Assembly (NCBI GenBank): GCA_021463515.1
Contig: JAJTYZ010000114.1
Location: forward strand, 263 to 64,262
Source: Chthoniobacterales bacterium
GTDB taxonomy: Bacteria; Verrucomicrobiota; Verrucomicrobiia; Chthoniobacterales; JACTMZ01
Direction: 5' to 3'
Length of the DNA: 64,000 nucleotides
The notes beneath the pieces were generated by a model, which saw only the letters and a list, made by a program, of their open reading frames with translations, was not told the origin of the DNA and did no database searches. The translations under genes and the position numbers were made by a program. Of the stretch, positions 3,559 through 21,253 are shown in pieces. Position 1 is the first letter of the stretch. Each line of letters starts with the position of its first letter.

Positions 3559-3583
3559 GGTATGTATGGATTCAATAAAAGCG

Positions 3584-4834: not shown

Positions 4835-6558
4835 TAGTGTCCGCCCTCCTCTGCGGTAACACGGAGAATTTCCTCCACCGTAGTGACGCCTTCCAGCACC
4901 CGATCCCATCCATTATCACGCAGAACTTGCATTCCTTCTTCGATGGCGACTGCCAACAAATCGGACTGCGAACTCCTCTTCGCAATCAACTCCTGCAGAC
5001 GCGGCGTAATCATGCAAATTTCAAAAATGGCGGCACGTCCCTGATAGCCCGTTTGACGGCAAGCATCGCAGCCCACAGCACGATAAATCACTCGATAGGG
5101 AGGCAAATGAAATCCCCGACGTTCAAGGTCCGCTACGGGATAATTCACTTCCATTTTACATTCTTCGCAGAGGCGTCGGACGAGTCGTTGTGCGATAAAC
5201 GCACGCACAGCCGTGGAAACCAAGAAAGGTTCAATGCCCATATCCACAAGGCGTGTGATGCCGCCAATCGCATCGTTTGTATGCAATGTGCTAAAAACGA
5301 GGTGTCCGGTAAGAGCGGCGCGAATGGCAATTTCACCCGTCTCTAAGTCGCGCATTTCGCCGATCATGACCACATTCGGATCCCCGCGCAAAATGGCCCG
5401 AAGACCACGTGCAAATGTAAGGTCAATCTCCGGGCGAACGGCAATTTGCAAAACTCCCGGAAGCTTATTTTCCACGGGGTCTTCAATGGTAACAATCCGT
5501 CGCGATTCCTTATTGAGTACCGTAAGAAACGTGTAAAGCGATGTAGACTTTCCGCTCCCTGTGGGTCCCGTGATGAGGACAATTCCATTGGGCATCGCCA
5601 ATAATTTATCCACGCGCTCGCGATTTTTTCCATCAATCCCCAGCCGTTCAAAAGTGAACTTTTGCTGTCCCAATAAACGCAGACTTACACTTTCGCCGGT
5701 CACGGTGGGAATGGTGGCGACACGAACGTCAATAGATTGCCCTTCAAACTCGAGAGCAATACGCCCATCCTGCGGTAATCGCCGTTCGGCGATGTCGAGA
5801 TGTGACATAATTTTTACCCGCGCAACGACCGCATCTTGAAGTTTCGCAATCTGTGCAGGTACAGGCACATTGTGCAACATGCCGTCTACGCGGTAGCGAA
5901 TTCTTAAGTCCTCATGAACCGGCTCAATATGAATATCCGTGGCTCGTTCGAGAAGAGCTTCACGCATAATTTGATTCACAAATTTGACGACCGATGCTTC
6001 GGAATCATCCTGCTCATCGAGGGCTTGAACCTCATCTTTGAGGTGATCGAGAATTTCTTCATCTTCGCGCCCTTCCAACAACTCTTCAAAAGTATCTGCT
6101 CCGATACCATAGCCTCTACGCAGTGCCTGTTGAATATCGCGACGTGTGTGCATTGCCAACTCGATGGGCTGTTGAAGCGTTTGAGCGAGGCATTGCTTGG
6201 CTAACAAATCAAACGGATCAAACGTGAGAATTTGGAGGTTTTGATCGCGTTCGCCGACGACGAGTAATTGATGACGAAGGGCGAGGCGAAGCGGCAATCG
6301 TTTTTGCAATTCGCTACCGGCAAGCGTTGGTTGTGATGGCCACCACGGGAATTGGGTGGCTTTCGCCACCTGTTGAAGGAACGTCCGTTCCTCGACATCT
6401 TTTTTCTCCAAGAGAGCCTGGATGGGTGAGCGTTGTTGCGACAGGGCATTATCAACCAGAGCCGCGACGGTAGACTCACCGGCACCGGCAGAAAGGGCAG
6501 CTTCAATCAAAATGGCACGGAGTGAAAGCATGGCTGGCAATGCCAATTTGAGGGGCAT
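4834..6558 (-). CDS. gspE: Type II secretion ATPase GspE
   Basis: Walker A GPTGSGKST, Asp/His boxes (GEMRDLETGEIAIRAALTGHLVFSTLHTND) and the tetracysteine motif CEECK...CDACRQTGYQGR. ATG at 6558; a second in-frame ATG (M10) lies at 6531. Confidence 0.9.
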   Translation of the reverse strand: MPLKLALPAMLSLRAILIEAALSAGAGESTVAALVDNALSQQRSPIQALLEKKDVEERTFLQQVAKATQFPWWPSQPTLAGSELQKRLPLRLALRHQLLVVGERDQNLQILTFDPFDLLAKQCLAQTLQQPIELAMHTRRDIQQALRRGYGIGADTFEELLEGREDEEILDHLKDEVQALDEQDDSEASVVKFVNQIMREALLERATDIHIEPVHEDLRIRYRVDGMLHNVPVPAQIAKLQDAVVARVKIMSHLDIAERRLPQDGRIALEFEGQSIDVRVATIPTVTGESVSLRLLGQQKFTFERLGIDGKNRERVDKLLAMPNGIVLITGPTGSGKSTSLYTFLTVLNKESRRIVTIEDPVENKLPGVLQIAVRPEIDLTFARGLRAILRGDPNVVMIGEMRDLETGEIAIRAALTGHLVFSTLHTNDAIGGITRLVDMGIEPFLVSTAVRAFIAQRLVRRLCEECKMEVNYPVADLERRGFHLPPYRVIYRAVGCDACRQTGYQGRAAIFEICMITPRLQELIAKRSSQSDLLAVAIEEGMQVLRDNGWDRVLEGVTTVEEILRVTAEEGGH

Positions 6559-6587
6559 TCCCTTCCGCGCTCAAAGCTACCGGGATA

Positions 6588-6617
6588 AGCGGTAGCTATC
6601 TACGTGATGAGCGGTCA
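6588..6617 (+). promoter_or_regulatory. Direct-repeat box A (AGCGGTAG-N10-GATGAGCGGTCA); candidate LytTR-type operator upstream of gspE
   Basis: Reads AGCGGTAGCTATCTACGTGATGAGCGGTCA on the + strand. The AGCGG half-sites start at 6588 and 6610, a 22-bp period. It overlaps the response-regulator stop codon (6615..6617). It lies 30 nt from the gspE ATG at 6558 and 57 nt from the ATG at 6531. The proximal half-site is also the right arm of an 8-bp inverted repeat (6575..6582 / 6590..6597). Confidence 0.55.
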
Positions 6618-7301
6618 ACTAAGAGCTTGCTTAAGACTTGGCCAATAACGGCGACTCACAAGAAGTGCTTTCCCGTTACCTAAAATCACTTCGCGGCGGC
6701 TCTCGGAAATCGCTCGAATTTCACGAATGGCAGCCAAGCGAATAATGGTGCTACGATGAATTTGCATAAATTCACAAGGCATCACTTCGAGCCATTCCTT
6801 GAGGGGACGAAGCATGAGCGTCGAAGTTCCATCTCCCAAAACTAATCGCGTATAATTTCCCTCCGATTCGATGGAATCCAGCAATGTCCACTCCACACGA
6901 CGCACGGCACCTCCGAGAAGTAAAAGCAAAGTTTGAGGCGGAACGTGAGCGGCATCCCCGTGGATGCGAGCAAGTGTGTTCGCAAGTCGAGCGGGCTCTA
7001 CGGGCTTAAGGAGATAATCAAGTGCATTAACCTCAAAGGCCCGAATGGCGTATTGATCATACGCGGTGACAAACACAATGGGCGGGAGAGGTTGTGGGGC
7101 TTGGGCTAAAAAATCAAATCCGCTTTCTCCACGCAGTTGGACATCCAAAAAAATAATATCCGGCACGCAACGCTGACACAAACGAACGGCTTCCTTGATA
7201 TTCGAGGCAGCATCTATGGTTCGCACTTCGGGATGCACTGACAACAAATGCCGCATTTCTTGCCGAGCGAGAGATTCGTCATCAATGATCAAACAGCGCA
7301 T
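6615..7301 (-). CDS. LytTR-family response regulator (REC + LytTR DNA-binding domain)
   Basis: MRCLIIDDESLARQEM...DIIFLDVQLRGESGFDFL...VFVTAYDQYAIRAFEVNALDYLLKP gives a canonical receiver domain. The C-terminal part (EGNYTRLVL...MQIHRSTIIRLAAIREI) is LytTR-like. It overlaps the kinase gene by 13 nt. Confidence 0.85.
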   Translation of the reverse strand: MRCLIIDDESLARQEMRHLLSVHPEVRTIDAASNIKEAVRLCQRCVPDIIFLDVQLRGESGFDFLAQAPQPLPPIVFVTAYDQYAIRAFEVNALDYLLKPVEPARLANTLARIHGDAAHVPPQTLLLLLGGAVRRVEWTLLDSIESEGNYTRLVLGDGTSTLMLRPLKEWLEVMPCEFMQIHRSTIIRLAAIREIRAISESRREVILGNGKALLVSRRYWPSLKQALS

Positions 7302-8824
7302 GTTGAATCATTGTAGGGAATCTCAATGAGGGCGCGAACCCAGTTTTGATCGATCTGAAACTTCAATGAGGCCTCTTTCCCGTACATGAGTTGAAGGCGA
7401 TGGCGGATATTGTCCACTCCGAGATGCCGTCGAGAAGGATCTGGCGTACGCCAGATACCGGTATTTGCCACCTCGATTTTCAAATGCTGTTTTTCGACAC
7501 GAACATCAATGTGAAGGTTCATAATCCCGCTATGGACGGCAAGGCTGTGAGTTATGGCATTTTCTATTAAAGGTTGCAGAAGAAAAATCGGTATTCGTTG
7601 TTCCTCCAATCCTTCAGCCACAGCAATGACAACTTTCAAATCCTCGGGAAAACGCTGTTGCTCGATCGCCAAATACTGCCGAGCCAAAGTCATCTCTTCC
7701 CCCACCGTCGAAAAATTATCCGCAGGATCGGACAGAGTTGCCCGCATGTAGCCTGCGAGTTCCGTAACCATTTTACGCGAGGTCTCATTTGAAGCAGGCA
7801 AGGTCGCCCGCAAAGAATTGAGAGCGTTAAAAAGAAAATGCGGATTCATTTGATACCGCAGAGCGTCCAATCGAGCACGCTCTTCTTTCAACGAGATAGC
7901 AAGTGCCCGAGCCTTAGCGTGGACGAAATAGCGTTGTGCTAATTGGCGTTCCGCAACGAGTGCGGCGACGAGGAGCCCCGTTGCTGCTAACACCCAACAA
8001 AAGGCCTGGGTAAACCAAATCGCCGCTGGAACATGTTCGGGCACCATGCGTGACGCATAAAAAACAAGTGCTGCATAAACAGAGCCCATCACCGCGGCTC
8101 CCGCTGCAGCAGCACCCTGCGGACCCAACTTGACAGCGACGAGAATGAAAACCGGAAACACCAAAAATACGAAATTTTTCCCCTGGTCTAAAAAGGCAGC
8201 ACCACACGTTAAAAATGTCATGGTACTCACCCCTGCCACCCAAAGAAGCAACTCTCCATAGACATTGGAAAACACGGAAGGTCTCCGAAGTAGGAGCAGT
8301 AAAAGCGGCGAAAGCAAAATGAGTGCCGTCCCATTGGAAAAACTCCAATTCCAGATTGCCATACCGAACTGACTGAAATCCATTTTTCGCTCTACGAACA
8401 ACCAAAACGGAACAACGATTGTCCCCGGAATCGGTGCTATAAAAGATGCTGCCATCAGGGCCAGCACGGAACGCGTATGATCAAATCCACGAGCTACGCG
8501 ACCTAATTTGCGAACGATCAAGTAGCCGACTAACGCCTCCAAAACATTCCCGGTTGCTCCCACAAATGAAAACACAAGAGGCTCACCAAAGACTAAGGCC
8601 ACGATCGGAGCGGACACCCAAATCCACGGGAAAAAGCGCCAACCCAACCAGAGCAATCCCACAAGATTGATAGCGGAAGCTGGCCAAAAAATGTGCTGCG
8701 CCCAAGCAGGCAAACTATACGGCCATAATTGATCCCCAAACCAAAAGGTAAAACATACCGTCCCCGCAGAAATCAGTCCAAAGCCCAGCCCCTGCACCCA
8801 TGGATGTTTCCAAAAAGAAATCAC
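7289..8824 (-). CDS. Sensor histidine kinase, LytS/YehU-type (MASE1-like membrane domain + His_kinase + HATPase)
   Basis: About 300 aa of polytopic Trp-rich N-terminal membrane domain resembling MASE1. This is followed by LRYQMNPHFLFNALNSL (a hallmark of the PF06580-type H-box) and an ATPase region (LLQPLIENAITHS). The only available start is GTG at 8824. Confidence 0.8.
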   Translation of the reverse strand: MISFWKHPWVQGLGFGLISAGTVCFTFWFGDQLWPYSLPAWAQHIFWPASAINLVGLLWLGWRFFPWIWVSAPIVALVFGEPLVFSFVGATGNVLEALVGYLIVRKLGRVARGFDHTRSVLALMAASFIAPIPGTIVVPFWLFVERKMDFSQFGMAIWNWSFSNGTALILLSPLLLLLLRRPSVFSNVYGELLLWVAGVSTMTFLTCGAAFLDQGKNFVFLVFPVFILVAVKLGPQGAAAAGAAVMGSVYAALVFYASRMVPEHVPAAIWFTQAFCWVLAATGLLVAALVAERQLAQRYFVHAKARALAISLKEERARLDALRYQMNPHFLFNALNSLRATLPASNETSRKMVTELAGYMRATLSDPADNFSTVGEEMTLARQYLAIEQQRFPEDLKVVIAVAEGLEEQRIPIFLLQPLIENAITHSLAVHSGIMNLHIDVRVEKQHLKIEVANTGIWRTPDPSRRHLGVDNIRHRLQLMYGKEASLKFQIDQNWVRALIEIPYNDSTCAV

Positions 8825-8986
8825 GGCTCACTCTTTTGATCTCCTCCACAGCATGGCAAGTTATTTCCTACGCGAAGACGCATAAGAAATGGATGCCGCA
8901 TTTTCCGTTCGTCCAATTTTGCCATGCCGTTCATCCCTGCCTCCTCGGACGCTGCGATGCAACCTGAGAGTAAGTCCCATTTCTCT

Positions 8987-11900
8987 ATGAAAATGAGGCA
9001 TTCATTCTTGTCGTTTTTTGCAGTGTTAACCTTGACCGTTTGCCCGCAACTTTTCGCGGAAGCTTTTCATGTGGATCGTTGCGGGGTGTGGGATGCGCGT
9101 TTTCCGGGCCATCGAGAAGCAGAGGATTTTGCCATCATGCAATTTCCCATGGTGCTGAGCAGTCGGCCCGATATGCGGCGAGTGGATGTATTTTTCGAAT
9201 ATCGCGGAGATTTGCCCATGAAACAATCGCAGGACGGGAAGCCTCCAGCGACGGCATCGCTCAATGGCAAGCCCATCCACGTAGATCTGCGCTTTGGAAA
9301 TTCCGGGGCGACGCAATGGGTGAGAGCAAAGTTAAAGCTTCCGGACAAAGACATGAAATACGCGGAAAAAGGGGCACCCAATGATCTCCGAATCAGCCTC
9401 CATGCCTCGGATGGCACGTCCTTTGAAAAGCAGATCATCATCCCGGGGCTTACCCTTTCCTCGATGGATCAGCGTATCCTCGATGGCAAAGCCGCCGATA
9501 TTAATAGCTTCAACTACGCGATGGCGGTTAAAATTCCGCCTAACAAACTCGAATTTTCCAAGGGCATTCCGAAAATCGGTAAAGTTGGATTTGGCTTTCA
9601 ATTAAACGGCAAGTTGACTTTTTACCCGTTCACGAAGAAAAAAATTAATGACACGTATGGTGGCGTAAATCTCATAGCCGGCGAGAAAAAGTACGCCATT
9701 AAGGTCGGCAGCAAAAGCTCTGCCACATGGAGAAAAGGGGAATGGGATTACGACGAATGGAAAGCCTATATGGCGTTTTCACAAACGATTGAAATTTGGC
9801 AGCTCTCCTTTTTCGGGACATTGCCGCCGGAGACCAAAAAAGTCATTGAAGCGATTCCCTTTGCCGGGCCGGATATCCGCAAAGGATTAGAAGGTTTTAA
9901 GGCTTCGTTGGAAGCCGAGCCAACTCTCACAGGTGCTGCCAGCCTCGGGTTAAAGCCGGAAGATCCTTTTATTAAAAACTGGACGCTCAATGGAGAAATG
10001 GATGTTCGGCTTTCCCTTAATATGGCACTGGAAATTACGGCTTTGGGAAAATTCGGCGCAAGAGCACTTTTGGGCGGGAAAATTGACTTGGGCGTTCAGT
10101 CCCCCGCGACCCCGACTTTTTATACCTGCAAAGGTCAAATCTATGTCGGTGCCGACCTTTACTTTGCCTGCTTCGAATCCAATTTCCGCTATGCGCTGCT
10201 GGAATTTAACCTCAGTGCCGCCCCAAAAAATATCTTGCCGCCTATCAACACTTCGAAATCCAACGAACTCACGGCACCGCTTTTTCAGATTATGAAAATC
10301 CCCGAGGAAGATGAATTTTTTCCGCTTCAAGGTCTCTCACAAAACTCCGTAGAGCACGTGAAGCCATCGCAAGAAATCACCGCATTGGCGAATCACTTCC
10401 GTCAAATATCCGCCCCCGCAATGCCTCAGGCAATGACCTTGCAATTAGGAAATGACCCCCATGACATCCAAATTAAAAGCTCTGCCACATTACCCATTGT
10501 CAATCATCTCTCGCCACTGGCATGGCCAAGCATGGCTGCCTCGCAGGATGCACAACTCGTAATTTTCGGCGTGGACACCCGTGAGTCGAATGTGAAGCCC
10601 CGCAATCCCGTGCAATTCAGCAAACTCCTGTGGACACTCTGCGATGCCAATGGGAATTGGTCCGCGCCGCAACCGATGCCTGCCGGGAATGACGCTGCCC
10701 AAATGATGGCTTCTGCCGCCTACAACAATGCAGATTCCTTTCTTGCTGTGTGGCAACAAATGCGTGACCCAAATTTTCAGGGAGAGGACCCAGGAAGCTG
10801 GATGAACCAAAATGAAATCGTCGCTGCAAAATTTGATCTGAAGGAAAAAACATGGACGCTGCAACCCATTTCCAAGTCCACTGCAGGTACCGGCGATTAT
10901 TCTCCGCAGATCGCCATGGGCGCAACCATGCAGGGCAAAGCCGTTCCCGCCCTCGCTGTCTGGCTCCATGGAAAAATTCCGCCTATCAGCGCGTCAGGCG
11001 AAACTTCCACCGAGCCTGCAAACGTAACTTTCCATTGGTCCCGCTACCACAACAGCATTTGGAGCACGCCGGATTTCTCGACGACCGATGGAAATATGCA
11101 GGCTCTCAAAGCACCCAAGGGACTCCTGGCGTTTGATCTCGCCGCCACGGAGAATGCCAATATTTTGGGTGGCGTACTCGTCTATTCCTTCGTCGCAGCC
11201 GACGGCACGACGAAACTTGCCTGCCGTTATTTCTACGAACAACTTCCTCACGATTCTCAGCAACAGTCCCACCCGCCCATTTGGGGGCCCGAAGTCATCA
11301 TTGCCGATCAAGGAATCAATCTCGATCCGATTGTCGAAATGCGCCAAGTGAACAGCGGCTTTATCGTGTGGAATCAAAATGGCAATCTCGTGAGCACAGA
11401 ATTTCGTCTCAGCACAAGCACGTCGAAATTTGACAAGCTAACGGTGATTCGAAAGGCCCCAACCGGCAGTGAGTTTTACAACATTCATGCCATCCCATTT
11501 AAAGTCGGCGAATGGTCGGGTGGCAAACTTAAGGACCAAGCGATCGCGTGGAATGAACAGACGGATGATGGCCCGAGTATTGTGCTTACGGTTTATGATG
11601 CATACACCAGCACATGGAGTGAGCCCTTCTCCCTCACACCCGGAGATGCCTTGGAATCACTTTATGATCTTAAGAGCGATCGAAATGGCAACCTCATGCC
11701 GCTCTATGTTCATACCGACTTGAGCTATGAGAACGTAAAGACTCAGGATGAAAATGGGAATGCCGTACAAGTCGAGAGCGCACCGGTTCCGGAAGCCGAA
11801 AGCCTACGCATCGGAAAATTCCGCCCTTTGCGAGCTGTTGGTTTTGCATCCAATGGATTATCCACCACCTCGGAGGAGTTTATGGGAGGCACCAAGGTTA

Positions 11901-12517
11901 ACCTAACGGCTTCTGTCTCAAATTATGGCATTCTCGGGGTTAAGCCGCTGACGGTACGTTTTTATCAGGGCAATCCCAAAACCGGCGGAAATGAAATCGG
12001 CAAAAAGGACACTCAGGTTCTCCCGGGAGGTGCCACCGCACAAGTGACAATCGAATGGGATTTACCTGAGGATATTTGGGAAAAAGATAATGCGGCCACC
12101 GAAATTTATGCTGTGTTAGATACCAACCATCCCAGTGCCGCAACGAAGATTATCGGAGACACCGCCAGCCTTTATTTGGAAGGAATCCGTCTCGATGCCA
12201 GCGTCGAAGCAAAAACCCTTTTAGCCGATGGCTCCTTTAGCGTGGAAGTTGGCATCCAAAATTCCGGCTTCCCCAACACGGGTTCCTTTCCCGTGGTCAT
12301 TTATGATTACGCAGGCATTCACGAAATCACACGCGGAATGATGCCACGTGTCGATGCCGGAGGCTTTGAACAAGTCACTCTCGAAATGCCTGCCGGAAGT
12401 GCAGGAACAGCACCCGAAGGAAAAGATTTTTTGGTGAAAATAGACCCTGAAAACACTCTCAAACTTTCCGGTAATCCGAAATTGGAGAAAAAGCTCCATG
12501 TAAAATCTAAGCCATGA
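8987..12517 (+). CDS. Large secreted protein of unknown function (about 1176 aa) with two C-terminal CARDB-like Ig-fold modules
   Basis: Trimmed to MKMRHSFLSFFAVLTLTVCPQLFAEAF, a signal-peptide-like N-terminus. C-terminal segments (VNLTASVSNYGILGVKPLTVRFYQGNP...ATAQVTIEWDLP, about 11.88-12.13 kb; SVEVGIQNSGFPNTGSFPVVIYD...FEQVTLEMP, about 12.22-12.47 kb) resemble CARDB domains. The rest is unrecognised. Confidence 0.75.
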   Translation: MKMRHSFLSFFAVLTLTVCPQLFAEAFHVDRCGVWDARFPGHREAEDFAIMQFPMVLSSRPDMRRVDVFFEYRGDLPMKQSQDGKPPATASLNGKPIHVDLRFGNSGATQWVRAKLKLPDKDMKYAEKGAPNDLRISLHASDGTSFEKQIIIPGLTLSSMDQRILDGKAADINSFNYAMAVKIPPNKLEFSKGIPKIGKVGFGFQLNGKLTFYPFTKKKINDTYGGVNLIAGEKKYAIKVGSKSSATWRKGEWDYDEWKAYMAFSQTIEIWQLSFFGTLPPETKKVIEAIPFAGPDIRKGLEGFKASLEAEPTLTGAASLGLKPEDPFIKNWTLNGEMDVRLSLNMALEITALGKFGARALLGGKIDLGVQSPATPTFYTCKGQIYVGADLYFACFESNFRYALLEFNLSAAPKNILPPINTSKSNELTAPLFQIMKIPEEDEFFPLQGLSQNSVEHVKPSQEITALANHFRQISAPAMPQAMTLQLGNDPHDIQIKSSATLPIVNHLSPLAWPSMAASQDAQLVIFGVDTRESNVKPRNPVQFSKLLWTLCDANGNWSAPQPMPAGNDAAQMMASAAYNNADSFLAVWQQMRDPNFQGEDPGSWMNQNEIVAAKFDLKEKTWTLQPISKSTAGTGDYSPQIAMGATMQGKAVPALAVWLHGKIPPISASGETSTEPANVTFHWSRYHNSIWSTPDFSTTDGNMQALKAPKGLLAFDLAATENANILGGVLVYSFVAADGTTKLACRYFYEQLPHDSQQQSHPPIWGPEVIIADQGINLDPIVEMRQVNSGFIVWNQNGNLVSTEFRLSTSTSKFDKLTVIRKAPTGSEFYNIHAIPFKVGEWSGGKLKDQAIAWNEQTDDGPSIVLTVYDAYTSTWSEPFSLTPGDALESLYDLKSDRNGNLMPLYVHTDLSYENVKTQDENGNAVQVESAPVPEAESLRIGKFRPLRAVGFASNGLSTTSEEFMGGTKVNLTASVSNYGILGVKPLTVRFYQGNPKTGGNEIGKKDTQVLPGGATAQVTIEWDLPEDIWEKDNAATEIYAVLDTNHPSAATKIIGDTASLYLEGIRLDASVEAKTLLADGSFSVEVGIQNSGFPNTGSFPVVIYDYAGIHEITRGMMPRVDAGGFEQVTLEMPAGSAGTAPEGKDFLVKIDPENTLKLSGNPKLEKKLHVKSKP

Positions 12518-12656
12518 AGGTCTCCCCCTTCCGCATCAACGGATGGACTGAGACAATTGTGGAAAGAGCCATCTCCGCCTTCGGTTCCGGTTTGACCGTG
12601 TTTGTATTTCGATCGCAGGCGAACCGGAGCAACACGGTGATAGTGCTGCCTCTCCT

Positions 12657-12705
12657 AACCAAGACAATCTTGGTTGGCAGTAACCGCGCCCAATCGGGCG
12701 CGGTT
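12657..12705. terminator. Twin hairpins between convergent genes; candidate bidirectional terminator
   Basis: AACCAAGA-caa-TCTTGGTT (12657..12675) and AACCGCGCCC-aatc-GGGCGCGGTT (12682..12705). The second is a perfect 10-bp GC-rich stem. Neither has a strong T-tract. Confidence 0.45.
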
Positions 12706-12746
12706 GCCGGAAACATCCGCAACTTTTTACACCACGATATGTCGCG

Positions 12747-15704
12747 TTAGTTCTCTGCTGCGGAGAAGGTGAATTTGTAGGTATCCGCAGGAAGCGGGCC
12801 CGAGCCGTCGGCTTTCATCACTCGATCGGTATTGAGCAGGAGTCGTCCGACATCTTGCCGACCCAGCCGCCAAATACGCAGCTTATCGCCATTCTTAGCA
12901 ACAACGGGAATCGTGCGTCCGTCTTTTACCACAGCCGTGACCGGCGTCCCCAAGAATGTTCCCAGCGCATCGTCGCCTTGCACGCGGTAAAATACCTTGG
13001 CCAAATCCTTGCCCGTGTCCACATAGACCACAGGCAAATTACTCCAGCGGCCTACCGTGGGACTCGGGCTATAAGTCCCCGTACCCGTGACAGGCTTCGT
13101 GCCTGTTTCAAGGTCGTAGAGATCAAAGCCGTCCTTCGATACATTCTTGATGGTGAATTTGCCATTGGCTTCCTTCACGCCGATCACTTGATCAATCAGC
13201 ACCTTCTCATTCTCCGCGAGGTGATGCGGCGCATCAGTCGTCACGTGAATGGGGGTGCCACTTTTAACGAACTTAATGGCACTTGGCAGCGTGTCTGTTT
13301 CATCTCCAGAGAACTTCGCATCGGCTGTTACCGGCCCATAAGGTGCTTGGATGGCCCACACGTTTTTATTCACCAACCCTTTTTCTCCGGCAACGGTGAG
13401 AATCAGGTTGTTGGCCCCACCCGCCCCAATATCGGCGGTGTCATCATCTACGGAGAAGCCATAGCCCGAGAAACCAAGTTCCACATGAACAAACCAGACG
13501 AAAGGATCGAGGTTAAAGACATTGTACGTCTGACCTCCCGTGGGCTCGGCGGGATCGGGATACCAGTGCAAATGCTTGCCTTTTGCATCCACAACATCGG
13601 GATATTTGGTGAAGTCGCTCACCCCGCGTAAAACGGATTTGATGAGATCACGAATCATCGCAATGGCCATCTGACCATCCACCGAATCTTTGGCGGGTTG
13701 ATCAAATATGTAGCCCATATTAGCACCAATAATGTCCTGCATGAATTTGCACTGGCTGTCGTTGTTTTTGTGCCCAATCTGATTCATGGAAGCCATGATG
13801 AGATAAACCGCTTGCGAAAATTCGTAAGGACGACGCCACTCATCTTCCTTCGCAAAATTGAATTTGAGGAGCGGATATCCGGGCTGCCCTGCTTTGGGAG
13901 TCCAAATCAATGGATTGTAAGTCGGTGGCTCAATGGTAAACTTTTGATTCAGCGCAGGATTTCTTGCCACTTGACTTAGAACAGCAGATTTCTTATCGCT
14001 GGCGACTTGGAGAATGACTGCCGCCCCTTGATGTGGCCCCGTTTCTGTCATCGCATCATCCAATCCAGGCCCCTTCACCGCCATCCCTGGTACCAAGCCG
14101 GGTACGGGCTGAGTAAAAGAAATCGTCGCAGAACGAACTTCCATCGAACCTTGAACCGTAATGGGCGCCGTGGGCGCATTGGGATTTTTATCCTTCCAAT
14201 GATCCAAATAATACTGCGCCCATGAATACCAAAGTCGCAGCATCGTATCCGCCGCATAATCATTAACCGGACGCGTAAAAACATACGTCGTCATATCGCT
14301 TGTGTTGGCGAGCGGCTTGCTCAAGGTGACGGTGTAAGCTTTTGGATCCTTAGAAATCACGGTCGTACCCTCTTGGATGGGATTGGGCTTGGGTTTTTCG
14401 GGTGCCGGGTTGGCCGTGACAATCATGCCCGGCTGAATAAAATCCATCTTCGCTTTTCCTTCCTGAGGGTTGAGGCTCAATACTGCATTTCCTTTGGGGC
14501 TTGTTGTCGCCGAGTTGCCCAAAGCCAAAAATTTGGCACCCGTTCCTCCGCTAGAAAGCATGAACTTTACCGTCGTCCAATCCCCCGCTTTCTCATAACT
14601 CCCCGGCGTTGCCTTGAGCGGACTTTGAGCAAAGATATTGGCGCCGGATGGAATTTTTATGGGCTGCTTCGCATCCCCCGAAGGATTAGGGATATTGTAA
14701 AAAGGCCACCCTTTCCCTCCAAAATACTGTCCCAATAACTTGTTGGGTTTCGTTTTATCACCCTCCGCCGTAAACTCACGAATTTTAGCTTGGAGAGATT
14801 CAATGTTGCCAATGGAACCCGTCCAGCCATTGGGTTCAGGCTGCGAACCCGGCGTCCAACGTCCATTTTTATTGGGATCGGGCATCGCTCCAGAAATCGG
14901 CGGGAGCACCCAAGCATCCGTCACCTCCATCGCCAATGGGAGATAAAGATTGTCCACATTCGACACATCATAATTAATCAATGTCACCAACTCGGTATCC
15001 GGAATTTGATCCTTCGTCTTAAGTTTAACCATGTATTCATGATCGCGGATCGTCCACTCCGCGAGTTGGTCTTCGGAATCATCATTGGGTGCCTCCGCCA
15101 AAGTATCCGTCGCCCGATACCACATCACCACACCATCTTTGCTCTGCGCCGGCGCAATGGCGCGGATGGAAGCCGGACGATATCGCAACGGATTGGGATC
15201 GGTCGTCGTTAGGTACGTGCCATCGGTGCCAATACCAATGCGTGCGCCATTCCAAAATACCAAAGGCAATGACACCGTGATGCTTTGCCCCGCCTTCAAT
15301 CCGAAATAACAAGTGTCACCTTCCTTGTACCCAATATAGCCACGGTATTCCTTATCCGTGGGATCGTAGGGATCATAGAGCCCTTCGGTGGAACCTTCCG
15401 CTGTTGTTTTAGAATTCGGATTACGCATGATCGGATACACCGTCTTGTCGGAATTATTTACGATCGTCAGCGTCTTGTTGGGAATCGTATTCCCCTGCGG
15501 GTCCTTTCCGTAAGTAAGGACTTTTCCCGTTAATGTCCCCGGCCCCGGATTGGGATCCCAAGGCTGCGGCTTACTTGGATCCGTCACTCCCGTGGTGCCG
15601 GTAGGCATCGGGATTTTCTCCTCCGCTCTCGCAGGTGAAAAAAACAAGGACGTGCTGGCTGCAAGCACAGCACCCATGAGCAGGCGATGACGTTTTGCTT
15701 TCAT
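12747..15704 (-). CDS. Large secreted protein of unknown function (about 985 aa)
   Basis: The track ORF starts at TTG 15725. I trimmed it to the ATG at 15704, giving MKAKRHRLLMGAVLAASTSLFFSPARA|EE, a good signal peptide. Pro/Thr/Gly-rich beta-type sequence. A C-terminal stretch (IHVTTDAPHHLAENEKVLIDQVIGVKEANGKFTIKNVSKDGFDLYD) resembles small E1-FCCH-like beta-barrel modules seen in phage and surface proteins (low confidence). Confidence 0.75.
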   Translation of the reverse strand: MKAKRHRLLMGAVLAASTSLFFSPARAEEKIPMPTGTTGVTDPSKPQPWDPNPGPGTLTGKVLTYGKDPQGNTIPNKTLTIVNNSDKTVYPIMRNPNSKTTAEGSTEGLYDPYDPTDKEYRGYIGYKEGDTCYFGLKAGQSITVSLPLVFWNGARIGIGTDGTYLTTTDPNPLRYRPASIRAIAPAQSKDGVVMWYRATDTLAEAPNDDSEDQLAEWTIRDHEYMVKLKTKDQIPDTELVTLINYDVSNVDNLYLPLAMEVTDAWVLPPISGAMPDPNKNGRWTPGSQPEPNGWTGSIGNIESLQAKIREFTAEGDKTKPNKLLGQYFGGKGWPFYNIPNPSGDAKQPIKIPSGANIFAQSPLKATPGSYEKAGDWTTVKFMLSSGGTGAKFLALGNSATTSPKGNAVLSLNPQEGKAKMDFIQPGMIVTANPAPEKPKPNPIQEGTTVISKDPKAYTVTLSKPLANTSDMTTYVFTRPVNDYAADTMLRLWYSWAQYYLDHWKDKNPNAPTAPITVQGSMEVRSATISFTQPVPGLVPGMAVKGPGLDDAMTETGPHQGAAVILQVASDKKSAVLSQVARNPALNQKFTIEPPTYNPLIWTPKAGQPGYPLLKFNFAKEDEWRRPYEFSQAVYLIMASMNQIGHKNNDSQCKFMQDIIGANMGYIFDQPAKDSVDGQMAIAMIRDLIKSVLRGVSDFTKYPDVVDAKGKHLHWYPDPAEPTGGQTYNVFNLDPFVWFVHVELGFSGYGFSVDDDTADIGAGGANNLILTVAGEKGLVNKNVWAIQAPYGPVTADAKFSGDETDTLPSAIKFVKSGTPIHVTTDAPHHLAENEKVLIDQVIGVKEANGKFTIKNVSKDGFDLYDLETGTKPVTGTGTYSPSPTVGRWSNLPVVYVDTGKDLAKVFYRVQGDDALGTFLGTPVTAVVKDGRTIPVVAKNGDKLRIWRLGRQDVGRLLLNTDRVMKADGSGPLPADTYKFTFSAAEN

Positions 15705-15765
15705 AAATAATTTCGAGGCCGTCAAAATTCCACGGCTTTTCCAAAAGAAAAATCACTTCGTGATT

Positions 15766-15795
15766 AGCGGCAGTTAAGAGCGGGATGAGCGGTCA
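15766..15795 (+). promoter_or_regulatory. Direct-repeat box B (AGCGGCAG-N10-GATGAGCGGTCA); candidate LytTR-type operator
   Basis: Reads AGCGGCAGTTAAGAGCGGGATGAGCGGTCA. Half-sites at 15766 and 15788 (22-bp period). It lies 62 nt upstream of the ATG (15704) of the 985-aa secreted protein gene, in the same relative orientation as box A to gspE. It is 196 nt from the divergent regulator gene. Confidence 0.55.
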
Positions 15796-15990: not shown

Positions 15991-16866
15991 GTGATGTTTT
16001 TCTTCGGAGACTTCAATGCGATCAGACATTTCATGCGTTTGAATCACCCAAGTTGTAAGCGTTATAGAAGGGAGTCCGCCGAAGGAAAAAAAGATCCGGT
16101 GTCCTCCTCCCCTTCCACGTCGCCCCAAAGCCAGCTTCCTTTCCGCGCTGTGTTGCTTGATGACAATCCAAATGATCGCGATCACGTGCGTGCCATGCTG
16201 CGACGCCATCCTTCGATCCAACTTGCCGGTGAAGCAACCACGTTGAAGCAGGCTCTCGAAATGATAAGTCAGAAACGAATTGATGTTATGTTCCTCGAGA
16301 GCGAAATCAAAGGACGCTTTATCCTCGAAGAATGCCCCCTGATTCCTGCTGCCGTGAAATTAATTTTCCTCACCAACCACCAAATGGCCGCCGTGCGTGC
16401 CTTTGAATTGGAAGCTCTGGACTTTCTTCTCAAACCCCTGTCGTCCTCTCGCCTCAACGAAACCATACGTCGCCTTCTTCGCATTGATTGGCAACGAACA
16501 TCAACGCCACCCCTTTTGAAAACGGACAACAACGCGTCGGCACTTATCCCCTTTGAACGCGGACGTCGCGGTGCCTCACTCAGCGAAATTTCCCTCATTC
16601 AAGCATTCGGCAATTACACTCGCGTCACCTTCGACAAAGGTAAAAGCGAAATCGTTTTGCGCTCACTTGCAAAATGGGAGCAGTTGTTGCCCATGCCTCC
16701 CTTTCTTCGCGTGCATCGCAATGCCGTCGTCCACACAAACAAGGTTCGTGCTCTCGATGACATCAATGGCTGCAGTGTTCTGCGCTTAGACAACAATGAG
16801 GAAACCATCCCCGTAAGTCGCCGCTGTTTGCCGGAAGTTCGCCAAGCTCTTTTTGCCCAGCACTAA
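15991..16866 (+). CDS. Atypical LytTR-family response regulator (phospho-acceptor Asp replaced by Glu)
   Basis: The receiver domain aligns with the neighbouring regulator: RAVLLDDNPNDR...RIDVMFLESEIKG (against DIIFLDVQLRG)...LIFLTNHQMAAVRAFELEALDFLLKP. The C-terminal part is LytTR-like (FGNYTRVTF...LRVHRNAVVHTNKV). The start is uncertain: GTG 15991, ATG 15994 or ATG 16033. Confidence 0.75.
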   Translation: MMFFFGDFNAIRHFMRLNHPSCKRYRRESAEGKKDPVSSSPSTSPQSQLPFRAVLLDDNPNDRDHVRAMLRRHPSIQLAGEATTLKQALEMISQKRIDVMFLESEIKGRFILEECPLIPAAVKLIFLTNHQMAAVRAFELEALDFLLKPLSSSRLNETIRRLLRIDWQRTSTPPLLKTDNNASALIPFERGRRGASLSEISLIQAFGNYTRVTFDKGKSEIVLRSLAKWEQLLPMPPFLRVHRNAVVHTNKVRALDDINGCSVLRLDNNEETIPVSRRCLPEVRQALFAQH

Positions 16867-16868: not shown

Positions 16869-16898
16869 TAACCGCTCATCCAATCTGCGACTACCGCT
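16869..16898 (-). promoter_or_regulatory. Direct-repeat box C (AGCGGTAG-N10-GATGAGCGGTTA, on the minus strand); candidate LytTR-type operator upstream of the NHLP precursor
   Basis: The minus strand reads AGCGGTAGTCGCAGATTGGATGAGCGGTTA. It starts 3 nt after the regulator stop (16866). The AGCGGTAG half lies proximal to, and 60 nt upstream of, the precursor ATG at 16958. Confidence 0.55.
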
Positions 16899-16957
16899 TG
16901 TCCCCTTTGCGTCGCCTTCCGCGTCGGAGGCTCTCATGCTCCCGTTGTGTCCGTGTC

Positions 16958-17272
16958 ATGAACACCCACAATCCGCCCAACTTTTCTGAAATGACGCGTC
17001 GAGAAATCGAAGATTATCTTATCGAATTAGCGATGGTGAATCCTCTGTTTCGCGAACAACTTCTTGCCGAACCCACACGCGTTCTACGTGATCTCGGCCT
17101 TCCCGTAGGCGACAATGTGCATATCTGCGTTCTCGAAGAAGAACCGCAGTCCTTTTACCTCGTGCTGCCACGTGTACTGGAAGACCGAGAAAACGCCCAA
17201 GACTCCTGCGCCTCTACGTATCCCGCGAACAACACCACCGATATGTTTCGCTTTTTTCATGGCTACGCATAA
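16958..17272 (+). CDS. NHLP (nitrile-hydratase leader peptide) family RiPP precursor, 104 aa
   Basis: MNTHNPPNFSEMTRREIEDYLIELAMVNPLFREQLLAEPTRVLRDLGLPVGDNVHICVLEEEPQSFYLVLPRV matches the NHLP leader pattern (xxLExxLIxxAxxxxxFRxxLLxxPxxxL...G..LP....V.V.EE....YLVLP). This is followed by a 31-aa tail, LEDRENAQDSCASTYPANNTTDMFRFFHGYA. The track ORF starts at TTG 16853, which would run through box C; I prefer ATG 16958, with ATG 16991 as an alternative. Confidence 0.75.
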   Translation: MNTHNPPNFSEMTRREIEDYLIELAMVNPLFREQLLAEPTRVLRDLGLPVGDNVHICVLEEEPQSFYLVLPRVLEDRENAQDSCASTYPANNTTDMFRFFHGYA

Positions 17273-17290: not shown

Positions 17291-18550
17291 TCACCGACGC
17301 ATTTTGAAATCTGCCATGATTTCAGCGGGTGCGTGCCCCATTTGGAGAAGCTCCCCCATGCGGCGCATCGCGGGTGCCGTATGATTGAAAAAACGTTTGT
17401 AAGCACGGCAAAGATAATTCAGCCCCGCTTCTCCATCCGGCGTGCGAATAAAACGATGCTTCGGACACTCACCATGACATAAAGAACGCACCTCACATTC
17501 TCGACAATAACGCGGCAGGGTGTCGGCTTTGTCATTGCCAAATTTTTGCTGGAACTCCGAATTTACCATCGCGCCCAGTGTATGATTCAAAATATTTCCG
17601 AGCTTGAAATTCGGGTACACGTAATGATCGCACGAATACACATCGCCATTGTGCTCCATCGCCAAAGCCGTCCCGCATTTTTCCTCAAAATAGCAAAGTC
17701 CGCCCCCCACCCCCATCGTATTCCCCAGCGTCACATCGAAAATTTGCACAAATGTCCGCCCCACATCGCGCTTAATCCATTCGTCAAAAATCGTGCAAAG
17801 AAACTCCCCATATTGTTTTGGTTCCACACTCCAATCGGTCACGGGCATTCGCGCCGTGCCTTCCTCATCCGCTCGCGGCGGCATCGCCAAATCCAGTCCT
17901 AACTTTTTCGCCTCTGCATCCGGCAAACGCTCGACGAGCGGAATAAATTGAATAAACCCCGATCCCGTGTCCCGCAGAAATCGGTAAACTTCCAACGGCT
18001 TGAAGGAATTGATCCGATTCACCACCGTGAGCGTGTTAAAGGCCACGTGATGTTTTTTAAGAATCCGCAATCCCGTGATCACCTGCTCATACGACCCTCC
18101 CCCTTTTTTATCCACGCGATAGGCATCATGCAAACGAGGCGGCCCATCGAGGCTCAGACCCACGAGAAATTGATGCTCCGCAAAAAACGTCGCCCATTCC
18201 TCATTCAACAATGTGCCATTGGTTTGAAACGCATTGAAAATGGTTTTGCCGTGAGCATATTTTTTCTGCAAAGCCACGACCTTTCGAAAAAAATTAACGC
18301 CCAGCAATGTCGGCTCCCCTCCCTGCCACGCAAAACTCACCTCTGGCACATCCTGCTGCTCTATGTATTGACGGATATACGCCTCAAGCACCTCATCAGT
18401 CATTTTGAAATTCTCATTCGAGGGAAACAGCCGCTCCTTTTCCAAATAAAAGCAATACTTACAATCCAGATTACAAAGCGGCCCAATAGGCTTCGTCATC
18501 ACATGAAACGCGCGCCCCGCCGACGACGTATGAAAAGTGGATGCTGTCAT
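17291..18550 (-). CDS. Radical SAM/SPASM enzyme of the anaerobic sulfatase-maturase (anSME/AslB) family
   Basis: FHVMTKPIGPLCNLDCKYCFYLEKE (CxxxCxxC plus the AslB-type context), GGEPTL, and a C-terminal Cys-rich SPASM region (CYFEEKCG...CDHY...CRECEVRSLCHGECPKHR). Trimmed to the ATG at 18550 (the track start at 18559 is GTG). Confidence 0.85.
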   Translation of the reverse strand: MTASTFHTSSAGRAFHVMTKPIGPLCNLDCKYCFYLEKERLFPSNENFKMTDEVLEAYIRQYIEQQDVPEVSFAWQGGEPTLLGVNFFRKVVALQKKYAHGKTIFNAFQTNGTLLNEEWATFFAEHQFLVGLSLDGPPRLHDAYRVDKKGGGSYEQVITGLRILKKHHVAFNTLTVVNRINSFKPLEVYRFLRDTGSGFIQFIPLVERLPDAEAKKLGLDLAMPPRADEEGTARMPVTDWSVEPKQYGEFLCTIFDEWIKRDVGRTFVQIFDVTLGNTMGVGGGLCYFEEKCGTALAMEHNGDVYSCDHYVYPNFKLGNILNHTLGAMVNSEFQQKFGNDKADTLPRYCRECEVRSLCHGECPKHRFIRTPDGEAGLNYLCRAYKRFFNHTAPAMRRMGELLQMGHAPAEIMADFKMRR

Positions 18551-18777
18551 GTTGCCCACAGCATACTCAATAGCTCTTGGTTGAACGAGGCGGCTTTATT
18601 CTTGGAGGGAAATCGGGATGTAGGCTCCTCCGGAAATTGTCTTTGGGTACCGCACCCATCTCGAGTGCTGTTTCCCGCGCCCTGAATGAGCGCGATATTG
18701 ATGCGCTCCATGGGAAGACACCTGACACGCCCTGAACTTGGCCTTTAAAAGCTCCTGACGAACTATCGGCGTTCGAT

Positions 18778-20073
18778 TCACCACCCACGGTGTTCGACGG
18801 AATCAAAAAAGCGCGAAATCGCATCGTTTCGCAAAGCGTGGGTTGCCCCAATGTCTCGTAAAGGGATCACCGAGAGCGTTTGTTCATTGTCGGTTACTCC
18901 CTGACGCGTATCCATAAATGCTGTGATTTCCTTGCTTCGAGCATCCAAGGCATGCCGCAAATCTTCCGCTTCGGTAAATTTGGCAACAAAATGCCTGCGC
19001 TTTTTCCGACTCAAGGCCTCAAGCATCACATAATATTCCTGCACTAATGCGGCGTAGAGCGGATGCGCTCGAAAGCCGAGGCGTTGCAAATCCACTGCCG
19101 CCTTTTCGAGAAGAAATCTCCCCTCAGCCTCACGTCCCAAATTAAGCACCACCTTGGCAAAATCGAGATCGCTATCCACTGTTTGTAAAGATTCGAGGAC
19201 TGCAGAAAGTTTTTCTGAAGTTTCACGAGCAGAGAGCATTTCCACGCGTTGAGGGGAGGAAAGCCGCGCCACAGCCAGTGCCCACAGGCGTGCCATTCGT
19301 GTAGAGTCAGCAACAAGGTCTGGCCACGTCTGAGCAAATCGTTCCACGGCGTCTTTCTCCGGCTCGGCAAGGGTAAGGTTTTCCAAAATTTTCCTCCGTC
19401 CCTCGGGTTCTTCGATGAGGCTTTGAAAAAGGGCGAGGCTTTGAGCCGCATGAAGTTCACGGGCATAACCGCGCAATGTTTCAGGATTTTGTGCGAGGAA
19501 TTTTTCTAATTTCGGCATTCCTTTTGTTTCAAGCATCGAGGCATAGAGCTGTGCCGCGTCGGAAGAATCATGGCGCGTAAGTGCGGCAGACAAAGCTGCG
19601 GCCAGCCATGTGGGCGGATAAACAAAGCGCTGGCCTACAAATTGCTGCTGACGTAATGCCCATTCAAGAAACATGGCACGCAAAAGAGCCGCATCAACGC
19701 TTGCCTGATCCTTCGCGGCTGCGGGTGAGATATCCACCTGAATTTTTCGTCCTGCTTCGCCCGCATTGAAAACCTGAACAAGCACATCCGGCTGACGCAG
19801 TCGTTGGCCATCGGTGGGCGTCAAAATGAGCAGGATAGGGGCACGCCACAAATCTCGGGACTCCAACTCGCGCAGCATCCCCGTTTTTAACTCCTCGGCC
19901 CGACGTGCTAAATTAGACCTTTCCTGACGGGTTCCACCGAAGACAGTAAATTGTTTAGACACGCTCACGAGGCGATTTTCCGGCTTGAGCATTTCGGGGG
20001 AAACCGCTTGCCCATACATAACGCCGAGAAATATCTCGGCCAACATCGCCCCACAAAGGAAAGTCCGCCTCAC
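18778..20073 (-). CDS. Hypothetical exported protein, mostly helical (431 aa)
   Basis: N-terminus MRRTFLCGAMLAEIFLGVMYGQAVSPE is signal-like. The GTG start makes a GTGA overlap with the upstream stop (20070). No recognisable domain. Confidence 0.6.
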   Translation of the reverse strand: MRRTFLCGAMLAEIFLGVMYGQAVSPEMLKPENRLVSVSKQFTVFGGTRQERSNLARRAEELKTGMLRELESRDLWRAPILLILTPTDGQRLRQPDVLVQVFNAGEAGRKIQVDISPAAAKDQASVDAALLRAMFLEWALRQQQFVGQRFVYPPTWLAAALSAALTRHDSSDAAQLYASMLETKGMPKLEKFLAQNPETLRGYARELHAAQSLALFQSLIEEPEGRRKILENLTLAEPEKDAVERFAQTWPDLVADSTRMARLWALAVARLSSPQRVEMLSARETSEKLSAVLESLQTVDSDLDFAKVVLNLGREAEGRFLLEKAAVDLQRLGFRAHPLYAALVQEYYVMLEALSRKKRRHFVAKFTEAEDLRHALDARSKEITAFMDTRQGVTDNEQTLSVIPLRDIGATHALRNDAISRFFDSVEHRGW

Positions 20074-20837
20074 CGTTTCTTGCCCGGCCAGCGAACAACC
20101 ACCGCGTCGGGAGTTATCTCAATCGCAGAAGCCTTGGAGAAATACGAAAGCGGACGACTGAGTGCTTCGGCCATTCCGCTAAAATGTACCTGCACAGGCC
20201 ATCCCAAATAAGGCGGTATAATGAGGCGTCCGATAGAATACTGAACCGGCTCCAAGGTATAACCGTCCATGCGTCGCACGGGTTTGTATTCCGCCTTCAT
20301 AAACACAGGAAGCGATCCCACCGGAAGCTCCGCTTCCAATCCCACACGCAAAACCCCATCACCAGGTAAAGCATAAGCCCCCCTAGGGCGCAGCGAGTAC
20401 GTGTTTTCGGGTTGCTTAAACTCAATGACCGAAGCAAACCACATAGCAACATCGTCTGCCGTCCATTTGAAAGTCACCGCACCCGGAGAAGTCGAAGCCG
20501 TTTCCATGGTTTCGGTAAAACGCCCCGCACGCTCTGCATCTTTTTCGGCGAGGGAAGGCCAACTTTCGGGAGCTTGAAATGCACGTACCACCATCAAAAT
20601 CAGAGCGACTAAAATGGCGAGTTTCACGAGCGCATACAAACGAGACCCGAGAACCTGAAGCCCTTCCTTCAATCTCCAGGGGCGTTTGGAGCGAGTTACG
20701 GCCGACGGCGGAGTGAAGCCTCCGGGAAGTGCTGTTGATGCTTCTTCCTCTGAGCGCTCCAATTTTTCTCCACAGCTGTGGCAATAAACGCGAGTCGGAT
20801 CGTTATCGAATCCACAATGAGTGCAACGTAAAGTCAT
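20070..20837 (-). CDS. Zinc-ribbon membrane protein, unknown function
   Basis: MTLRCTHCGFDNDPTRVYCHSCGEKL (CxxC...CxxC), then one TM segment (LYALVKLAILVALILMVV) and an extracytoplasmic domain of about 150 aa. Confidence 0.6.
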   Translation of the reverse strand: MTLRCTHCGFDNDPTRVYCHSCGEKLERSEEEASTALPGGFTPPSAVTRSKRPWRLKEGLQVLGSRLYALVKLAILVALILMVVRAFQAPESWPSLAEKDAERAGRFTETMETASTSPGAVTFKWTADDVAMWFASVIEFKQPENTYSLRPRGAYALPGDGVLRVGLEAELPVGSLPVFMKAEYKPVRRMDGYTLEPVQYSIGRLIIPPYLGWPVQVHFSGMAEALSRPLSYFSKASAIEITPDAVVVRWPGKKR

Positions 20838-20843
20838 GATGAT

Positions 20844-21203: not shown

Positions 21204-21253
21204 AAGGCAAAAAGAACTAATCCCAAAAATTAGGCGTTTCGGCAAGTGTCCAT

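Follow-up and report, generated by a model that had tools for sequence, protein, structure and literature searches.

In the Agr, Com and Blp circuits, LytTR response regulators usually activate transcription from paired half-sites, i.e., 9-bp direct repeats separated by a 12-13 bp spacer and placed just upstream of the promoter. The LytTR regulator AlgR of Pseudomonas aeruginosa activates a minor-pilin operon, fimU-pilVWXY1Y2E, belonging to type IV pili, which are related to the type II secretion system (T2SS). Pectinases of Dickeya and glycanases of Cellvibrio are examples of classical T2SS exoenzymes. Here we describe a locus at which these themes appear to meet: a stretch of 64,000 nucleotides from an uncultured soil Chthoniobacterales bacterium of the Verrucomicrobiota (assembly GCA_021463515.1, contig JAJTYZ010000114.1, positions 263 to 64,262; hereafter the window), in which the genes for two large proteins with predicted Sec export, A and B, lie beside a T2SS operon, two LytTR response-regulator genes and the gene for a peptide precursor of the nitrile-hydratase leader (NHLP) type.

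We propose that A, B, the gspE-K operon and the NHLP gene would constitute a four-promoter regulon under an AlgR-type LytTR operator, with a LytTR regulator binding the paired half-sites and thus switching on the T2SS, A, B and the peptide precursor together. Proteins A and B would then undergo Sec export and periplasmic folding, followed by release of B, and probably of A, through the T2SS. Once outside, B would most likely act as a polysaccharide hydrolase or glycan-binding protein and A as a binding or adhesive exoprotein. Taken whole, i.e., a LytTR regulon, T2SS-released A and B, and B as a glycan protein related to glycoside hydrolase family 64 (GH64) and thaumatin, this is a model towards which we cautiously lean.

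The predicted operator and its four window genes

The element that carries this model had been noticed in the sequence-only reading as a "box B" common to gspE and B. It is a direct repeat of the 9-bp half-site CCGYTNRTC at a distance of 22 bp (N13 spacer, 31 nt in all), and by this paired-repeat layout and its half-site sequence it is predicted to be an AlgR-type LytTR operator, with half-sites CCGTTCGTC and CCGTTTGTC identical to published AlgR binding sites (PMC4064291). The operator is present four times in the window: (i) before gspE (6584-6614, minus strand; CCGCTCATC-N13-CCGCTTATC, 29.7 bits), where it begins immediately past the stop codon of the upstream regulator gene, (ii) before A (8905-8935, plus strand; CCGTTCGTC-N13-CCGTTCATC, 31.4 bits), ending 51 nt before the A start codon, (iii) before B (15762-15792, minus strand; CCGCTCATC-N13-CCGCTAATC, 29.7 bits), ending 57 nt before the B start codon, and (iv) before the NHLP gene (16872-16902, plus strand; CCGCTCATC-N13-CCGCTTGTC, 33.6 bits). 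The identity of the boxes before B and gspE thus stands as first described, with the distance then given for B (62 nt) being approximate. The further statements that no box precedes the 1176-amino-acid gene (A), and that the link of this gene to the T2SS rests on position only, are overturned by the operator at 8905-8935, which scores above the gspE and B sites; since A shares this operator with gspE, it is tied to the T2SS by the operator rather than by position.

At all four genes the operator ends 51-57 nt before the start codon, gspE being counted from ATG 6531 (minus strand). The longest gspE open reading frame (ORF) begins at ATG 6558, 25 nt from the operator, while the alternative start at 6531 lies 52 nt from it and yields an N terminus (MLSLRAILIEA) that aligns with MPLLRDILVQA of the GspE encoded at related locus L022; because of this alignment, and because the usual operator-to-start distance is restored, ATG 6531 is the likely gspE start. 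Three ATGs lie upstream of the A start (8924-8987), and the public gene call for the identical protein is a 1186-amino-acid form (P0121). As the operator ends at 8935, we favour ATG 8987 or 8993 as the A start.

With up to three mismatches allowed, the strict pattern is expected 0.67 times in the window and was found four times, all within 6.5-17 kb: exact at gspE and B, with one mismatch before the NHLP gene and three before A. A 31-nt matrix was built from 14 sites, the four window sites included, in all 14 of which the spacer is 13 bp. On this matrix the window held no further site of at least 12 bits beyond the four (29.7-33.6 bits), and mononucleotide shuffles of the window peaked at 20 bits. 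Because the window sites helped to build the matrix, it is the gap to the next site, and not the score itself, that constitutes the evidence.

Conservation of the operator and linkage to the T2SS

For comparison we used 71 related loci (1.31 Mb in total). By our own estimate, over roughly 2.8 Mb and both strands, about 0.01 occurrences of CCGYTNRTC-N13-CCGYTNRTC are expected, against 12 found (10 non-redundant), and in the related loci every site of at least 20 bits on the matrix stands a short distance upstream of a member of the same few gene families, on its coding strand. The operator precedes B homologues in L001/L011, L010, L020, L021, L022 and L026; it lies 51-52 nt before A homologues in L009 (78% identity) and L008 (33% identity); it precedes NHLP genes in L001, L020 and L027, arranged as in the window; and in L022 it lies 50 nt before gspE.

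These counts bear directly on the possibility that the shared operator and the gene positions are coincidental, with A and B being unrelated neighbours of the T2SS. Such a reading could appeal to the highly variable neighbourhoods of the homologues, as well as to a sigma-70 promoter scan that called none beside the operators, yet it would have to contend with the 12 sites found where about 0.01 were expected, all aimed at the same few gene families, and with four window sites of at least 29.7 bits against a shuffle maximum of 20. Operator counts, orientation and the matrix scan together effectively refute it, and we leave it only a very slight chance.

In L022, divergent operators stand back to back at 1162-1192 (minus strand) and 1246-1276 (plus strand), one of them directed toward B and the other facing a short ORF followed by the gene for a regulator of the same type as RR2, the second LytTR regulator of the window; this suggests autoregulation of that regulator.

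The T2SS operon of the window (704-6558, minus strand) comprises gspK, three pseudopilin-like ORFs, gspG, gspF and gspE, and runs on past the left end of the window. Pfam matches along it are T2SSK_1st, N_methyl, T2SSG (2.7e-24), T2SSF (7.7e-50) and T2SSE (2e-129). Together with the kinase and first regulator (6615-8824) and with RR2 (15991-16866), it flanks A and B just as the sequence-only reading had described.

Linkage of B to such a system recurs. By tblastn, B has both T2SS genes and an RR2 orthologue (58-66% identity) no more than 10 kb away in the window, L001/L011, L020, L022 and L026, five genomes that differ in gene order here. In L020, gspF to gspK are followed by three ORFs without a Pfam match, the secretin gene, the operator and B, and then by an HlyD-like gene, an exporter of the C39-peptidase ATP-binding cassette (ABC) type, a further ABC protein, RR2, and the operator and NHLP gene; L027 holds the right half of a cassette of this type. 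In L022, the divergent operators separate RR2 from B, and a further operator precedes gspE and gspF. In L026 (B at 9864-13037), the operator and B are followed after 148 nt by gspE, gspF, gspG, gspK and the secretin gene; the 148 nt contain no operator, and B and gspE may be co-transcribed, with B as the first gene. It is because this linkage survives gene rearrangement that we argue for a functional tie between B and the T2SS. Loci L021 and L027 come from one metagenome-assembled genome, JBGTAR01 (Terrimicrobiaceae JTS-AC78), which thus has two B paralogues, one alone with its own operator and the other at a contig edge beside an HlyD/C39-ABC/RR2/NHLP cassette.

On synteny and co-regulation, A and B are good candidates for T2SS cargo, and we infer both their T2SS dependence and the identity of the regulator at the operators. 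Several observations weigh against this proposal. To our knowledge, T2SS substrates have no sequence signature. Some 50 other B-homologue loci lie away from any T2SS, as do the A homologues in L007-L009, which are all the others examined, and the L007 homologue (72% identity) is without the operator. The link of B to the T2SS first suggested from position and the shared box is strengthened by the conserved operator and by synteny in four further genomes, and limited by the many B homologues found elsewhere. Homologues of both proteins mostly occur singly, with unrelated genes around them. We also considered a conserved A-B gene pair and rejected it, as the homologues never co-occur outside the window in the tblastn table. 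Our literature search on Verrucomicrobia T2SS secretomes found nothing relevant.

A different account of the same facts is that A and B share the regulation of the T2SS without being its cargo, remaining after Sec export as periplasmic or surface adhesins or as envelope-remodelling enzymes. The CARDB modules of A and its integrin-like arrangement of propeller plus Ig modules would suit such a role, most A and B homologues are encoded far from any T2SS, and nothing in the two sequences demands passage across the outer membrane. Set against this are the lack in A and B of a lipobox, membrane anchor, PEP-CTERM tail or recognizable outer-membrane domain, and a B-T2SS linkage that, with shuffled gene order in five genomes, is hard to explain otherwise. 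We regard this account as unlikely, if far from negligible, and retain T2SS release as the preferred reading.

Proteins A and B

The genes for A (1176 amino acids; 8987-12517, plus strand) and B (985 amino acids; 12747-15704, minus strand) are convergent, and the 229-bp gap between them holds an inverted repeat (12673-12714, no strand; 19-nt arms, 79% complementarity), a hairpin that is a candidate bidirectional terminator. Sec-type signal peptides, as first described, fit both N termini: in A, MKMRH-SFLSFFAVLTLTV-CPQLFA with cleavage before EA (approximately residues 1-24, read from its n-, h- and c-regions), and in B, MKAKRHR-LLMGAVLAASTSLFF-SPARA with cleavage before EE (residues 1-27), each with a basic n-region, an h-region of 13-15 residues and an A-x-A-like cleavage site. 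Hydropathy and motif inspection likewise agree with the earlier description of both proteins as free of a lipobox, PEP-CTERM tail and transmembrane segment. Beyond residue 40 no 19-residue Kyte-Doolittle window exceeds 1.6 in either, the C termini (...HVKSKP in A, ...FSAAEN in B) show no PEP-CTERM tail, and neither has a conserved lipobox Cys, Cys19 of A (context LTVC) not being conserved among homologues. The mature proteins, of about 125 kDa (A) and 104 kDa (B), are both acidic. NCBIfam gave no match for either.

Protein A belongs to a small family, with nine relatives among 5.8 billion sequences. Following the signal peptide, its parts are an N-terminal β-sandwich, a long-strand β region (175-408), a disordered linker (412-512), a β-propeller (~515-900) and two CARDB-like Ig modules (~950-1170; 11834-12514, plus strand); as the predicted model is of low confidence (pLDDT 58), these domain assignments are tentative. 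The name CARDB denotes the cell adhesion related domain in bacteria. Within A itself the Pfam CARDB match (PF07705) is sub-threshold (20.5 bits; cutoff 22.7), while eight of the nine family members match it (best E 5.9e-21) and the family profile matches PDB 2KUT over residues 965-1062 at 9e-13; the two C-terminal modules that the sequence-only reading had recognized are thus well supported as CARDB-like. Foldseek searches of the A model against PDB and viral libraries returned generic propeller and Ig matches only (propellers of integrin alpha, paramyxovirus G and ulvan lyase, with TM-scores to ~0.23). The Pfam Neuraminidase-like family (PF18413) matched seven of the nine members weakly (best E 2e-3); such weak neuraminidase-like hints, and others of a Tc-toxin kind, were not used as evidence. 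A propeller of the sialidase/BNR type would be six-bladed and have Asp-box repeats or a catalytic Arg triad. As the first reading had it, no catalytic motif or catalytic residues were found in A. A binding or adhesive exoprotein built of propeller and Ig-like modules is the more likely identity for A and the most economical guess.

Protein B is built of the signal peptide (1-27), a conserved core of ~750 residues (~50-810) and small C-terminal β-barrels (~800-980), with an AlphaFold model of pLDDT 76.6 and pTM 0.72. Its close relatives number more than 358 (53-76% identity), are without exception labelled hypothetical and come from Chthoniobacterales (e.g., Candidatus Udaeobacter and Terrimicrobiaceae). 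Against 1.84 billion cluster representatives, the B-family profile found 2303 at E <= 1e-3, a count of representatives at 50% clustering, of which 248 reach E <= 1e-30, with the core extending to Limisphaerales and the planctomycetotal Isosphaeraceae and Gemmataceae. More distant relatives (P0146-P0354), mostly from Planctomycetota, carry DUF4214, FG-GAP, PKD, DUF642, SdrD_B, Calx-beta and Tectonin modules on the same core, with one weak CBM35 match besides. Such modules are often found on extracellular carbohydrate-active or surface proteins.

The sequence-only reading had proposed structure prediction with Foldseek searching as a check. For A this returned nothing beyond the generic matches above, and for B it matched only a small C-terminal barrel to Uba1/Uba6 in PDB (E ~3e-4). 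Pfam E1_FCCH recognizes this FCCH-like β-barrel (B residues 819-870; 13095-13250, minus strand) in 37 of the 40 family members searched, at best with E 2.5e-7; we considered a connection with ubiquitin activation and set it aside, the barrel being judged a generic one.

The earlier statement that no catalytic motif is recognizable in either protein holds for A and needs revision for B, for which several weak-to-moderate signals point to GH64 and thaumatin. GH64 comprises β-1,3-glucanases, and its fold, as in PDB 3GD0 (from which our LPHase reference sequence was taken), joins a β-barrel domain and an α/β domain to form a cleft. The bridge to this family is P0199, a member of the B family (E 1.5e-96 to the B profile) whose residues 8-108 match Pfam GH64 (40.9 bits, E 2.1e-10; cutoff 27) and align to B residues 77-164 at 1.8e-30. 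A second relative, P0279, scores 44 bits against the same model, and P0296 reaches a sub-threshold 23 bits (E 5.6e-5); the matches of P0199 and P0279 cover model positions 4-98 only. With phmmer, LPHase and P0199 show weak collinear matches, and a P0199-subfamily profile run against 177,635 PDB sequences placed two thaumatin-like proteins at the top, its sole hits near threshold (E 0.25-0.45), with the match at the acidic-cleft motif YDVSxVD. This transitive collinear similarity, from B through P0199 to GH64/thaumatin, is moderate and not conclusive.

Profile-profile alignment with hhalign, using 75 diverse cores and the four solved GH64 sequences, placed B residues 78-261 (14922-15473, minus strand) on LPHase 5-143 (P = 0.015, probability 3%). 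The catalytic pair of GH64 is a Glu (acid) and an Asp (base) 16 residues downstream (PMC8394091). On this Glu hhalign sets E216 of B, and on the Asp D251, with a 19-residue insertion between them. Of 160 B-family sequences, all have E216, 158 have D246 and 145 have D251. Near the C-terminal end of the core, the motif YGFSVDDD (residues 748-755; 13440-13463, minus strand) resembles YGFAFDDV and YAFPYDDV of GH64; its Y748, F750, D753 and D754 are the same in all 75 sequences compared, and it forms the best local hhalign match to LPHase, without reaching significance.

Further likenesses to LPHase include (i) the N-terminal strand motif TITNNS, (ii) secretion of both proteins, that of B by its predicted signal peptide, (iii) the strand PLVFW-GR in B compared with IPKFSGRIYF in LPHase, (iv) a Glu set in AEWT in B and SEYT in LPHase, and (v) the C-terminal YGFSVDDD already noted, compared with YGFAFDDV. 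An Asp of B stands in YDVSNVD, the counterpart of STQVD in GH64 and of YDVSLVD in thaumatin-like proteins, and some B-family members exceed the Pfam GH64 threshold. Unlike GH64, B has a core of ~750 residues rather than ~370, with ~280 extra residues between conserved blocks, and extra C-terminal β-barrels.

A considerable body of results weighs against this assignment. By the family's own Pfam test B is not a GH64 member: PF16483 gave no match at E <= 10 for B, for ~40 close relatives or for the family consensus, nor did Pfam GH64 match a B-family construct without the central insert. The B-family profile found nothing among PDB sequences at E <= 10, hmmsearch with broader B-family profiles recovered no chain among the four GH64 sequences, and the 50 Foldseek matches listed for the B model include no GH64. 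Across the hhalign comparisons of the B family with GH64, P stays at 0.015-0.02 and the probability at just 2-3%; when the B family was aligned with just one thaumatin or one LPHase sequence, hhalign gave short motifs only, none significant. Glu and Asp lie 35 residues apart in B and 16 apart in GH64, and D251 is replaced by Asn in 14 of 160 sequences.

Weighing both sides, we consider that B probably belongs to the GH64/thaumatin superfamily, as a remote member expanded by insertions; E216 and D251 (or D246) would be its putative acid/base pair. That B is also an active glycan hydrolase is plausible, less certainly so than its superfamily membership, and we infer both the activity and its substrate.

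Regulators, the peptide gene and comparison with known systems

The window encodes two LytTR response regulators. RR1 (REC plus LytTR; 6615-7301, minus strand; Pfam Response_reg 1.3e-20, LytTR 4.2e-16) adjoins its own sensor kinase (7289-8824, minus strand), which has a MASE1 membrane domain (8.6e-17) and a His_kinase domain of the LytS/AlgZ type (PF06580, 1.7e-21). RR2 (15991-16866, plus strand; identified with Pfam) is 28% identical to RR1 and 62% identical to the L020 regulator encoded beside the NHLP gene, to which RR1 is 28-30% identical. Because it is the RR2 orthologue, and not RR1, that travels with the operator elsewhere, RR2 is the best candidate for the operator binder; RR1, with its MASE1/LytS kinase, may bind too. 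In pairwise alignments RR1 has the canonical phospho-acceptor context FLDVQ, and where RR1 reads Asp the RR2-type regulators read Glu (FLESE in the window, VLESR in L020, 17832-18704). If this aligned position is, as we take it to be, the receiver phospho-acceptor, the substitution suggests that RR2-type regulators are phosphorylation independent or phosphomimetic.

The fourth operator precedes the gene for the NHLP-type precursor (104 amino acids; 16958-17272, plus strand; Pfam NHase_alpha 2.7e-5), which we aligned with three orthologues (L001 9358-9669, L020 18794-19105 and L027 8772-9083). All share a conserved leader and the invariant C-terminal motif F-x-F-F-x-G-Y, the window core ending ...DMFRFFHGYA. 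In the orthologues an (I/M)AGG cleavage site precedes a core of 15 residues, and the gene for a C39-peptidase ABC exporter lies alongside; the window copy is without the Gly-Gly and has, in place of the C39 exporter, a neighbouring convergent gene for a radical SAM/SPASM enzyme (17291-18559, minus strand; Radical_SAM 7e-18, SPASM 4.3e-10), judged by its position a probable peptide maturase. An operator before the NHLP gene, together with the C39 exporter and Gly-Gly leader in three genomes, suggests possible peptide auto-induction. Searches of the literature for LytTR with NHLP, and for LytTR direct repeats in Verrucomicrobia, found nothing relevant.

Downstream of the radical SAM gene, at 18778-21272 (minus strand), lie ORFs of 431, 255 and 142 amino acids, the first without a Pfam match and the other two with N-terminal zinc-ribbon matches; the three may be part of the peptide module. 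Farther along the window, a 1200-amino-acid protein (25450-29052, plus strand) shows an unusual architecture of a weakly TerB-like N terminus, an ABC ATPase and an ABC-2 membrane domain.

The peptide gene raises the alternative that B belongs to an antagonism module, as a bacteriolysin-type lytic protein or a helper of the NHLP peptide under Blp/Pln-like regulation, with its T2SS linkage being secondary. In L001, L020 and L027, B does lie inside a cassette of HlyD-like, C39-peptidase ABC exporter, second ABC, LytTR regulator and NHLP genes, which is the classic layout of a peptide-bacteriocin locus. Elsewhere B is widespread on its own, outside any such cassette, the window has neither the C39 exporter nor a Gly-Gly site in its peptide, and searches with Pfam, NCBIfam, the PDB profile and Foldseek found nothing in B that resembles a known bacteriocin or peptidoglycan hydrolase. 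We consider a role of this kind improbable, and continue to favour B as glycan-directed T2SS cargo.

A bolder version of the favoured model, possible and rather doubtful, would see a peptide circuit of Gram-positive style in which an NHLP peptide, processed by radical SAM or C39 enzymes, and a Glu-bearing AlgR-type LytTR regulator drive the T2SS plus dedicated cargo in a subgroup of soil Chthoniobacterales; B would then found a new, double-sized glycoside-hydrolase family, an offshoot of GH64/thaumatin that is widespread in Verrucomicrobiota and Planctomycetota and unannotated. Should the NHLP peptide be a signal, peptide/LytTR signalling of the Firmicutes type would extend to Planctomycetota and Verrucomicrobiota (PVC group). 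The model as it stands offers a concrete, testable T2SS regulon (operator, regulator and four promoters) in a phylum in which both secretion and its control are almost unstudied, as well as a first functional hypothesis, with candidate catalytic residues, for an unannotated family of 2303 representatives in abundant soil bacteria (Candidatus Udaeobacter).

Among described systems, AlgZ(FimS)/AlgR of P. aeruginosa resembles the window in pairing a LytS-type kinase with a LytTR regulator and in its 9-bp recognition sequence, CCGTTCGTC or CCGTTTGTC, which is identical (PMC4064291). The window differs in that its sites are strict tandem pairs 22 bp apart that always end 51-57 nt short of the start codon, in that the genes predicted to be controlled are those for a T2SS, two exoproteins and a peptide, in a verrucomicrobial host, and in that its second regulator, RR2, has Glu at the presumed phospho-acceptor position. 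The Agr, ComCDE, BlpABCSRH and Pln circuits of Firmicutes likewise use paired direct repeats just upstream of promoters as the LytTR site (here predicted) and place a peptide precursor gene under the same operator, with a C39-ABC exporter and Gly-Gly leader as in L001, L020 and L027. In contrast to these circuits, the precursor here is of the NHLP type and ~100 amino acids long, the window has a radical SAM/SPASM neighbour, the host is Gram-negative, and the output would be a T2SS and large exoproteins rather than competence genes or bacteriocins. With classical T2SS exoenzymes, finally, A and B share a Sec signal peptide, the character of soluble, folded, multidomain, hydrolase-like proteins, and genes near to or co-regulated with gsp; they differ in being candidate rather than established cargo, in belonging to unannotated families and in their unusual size.

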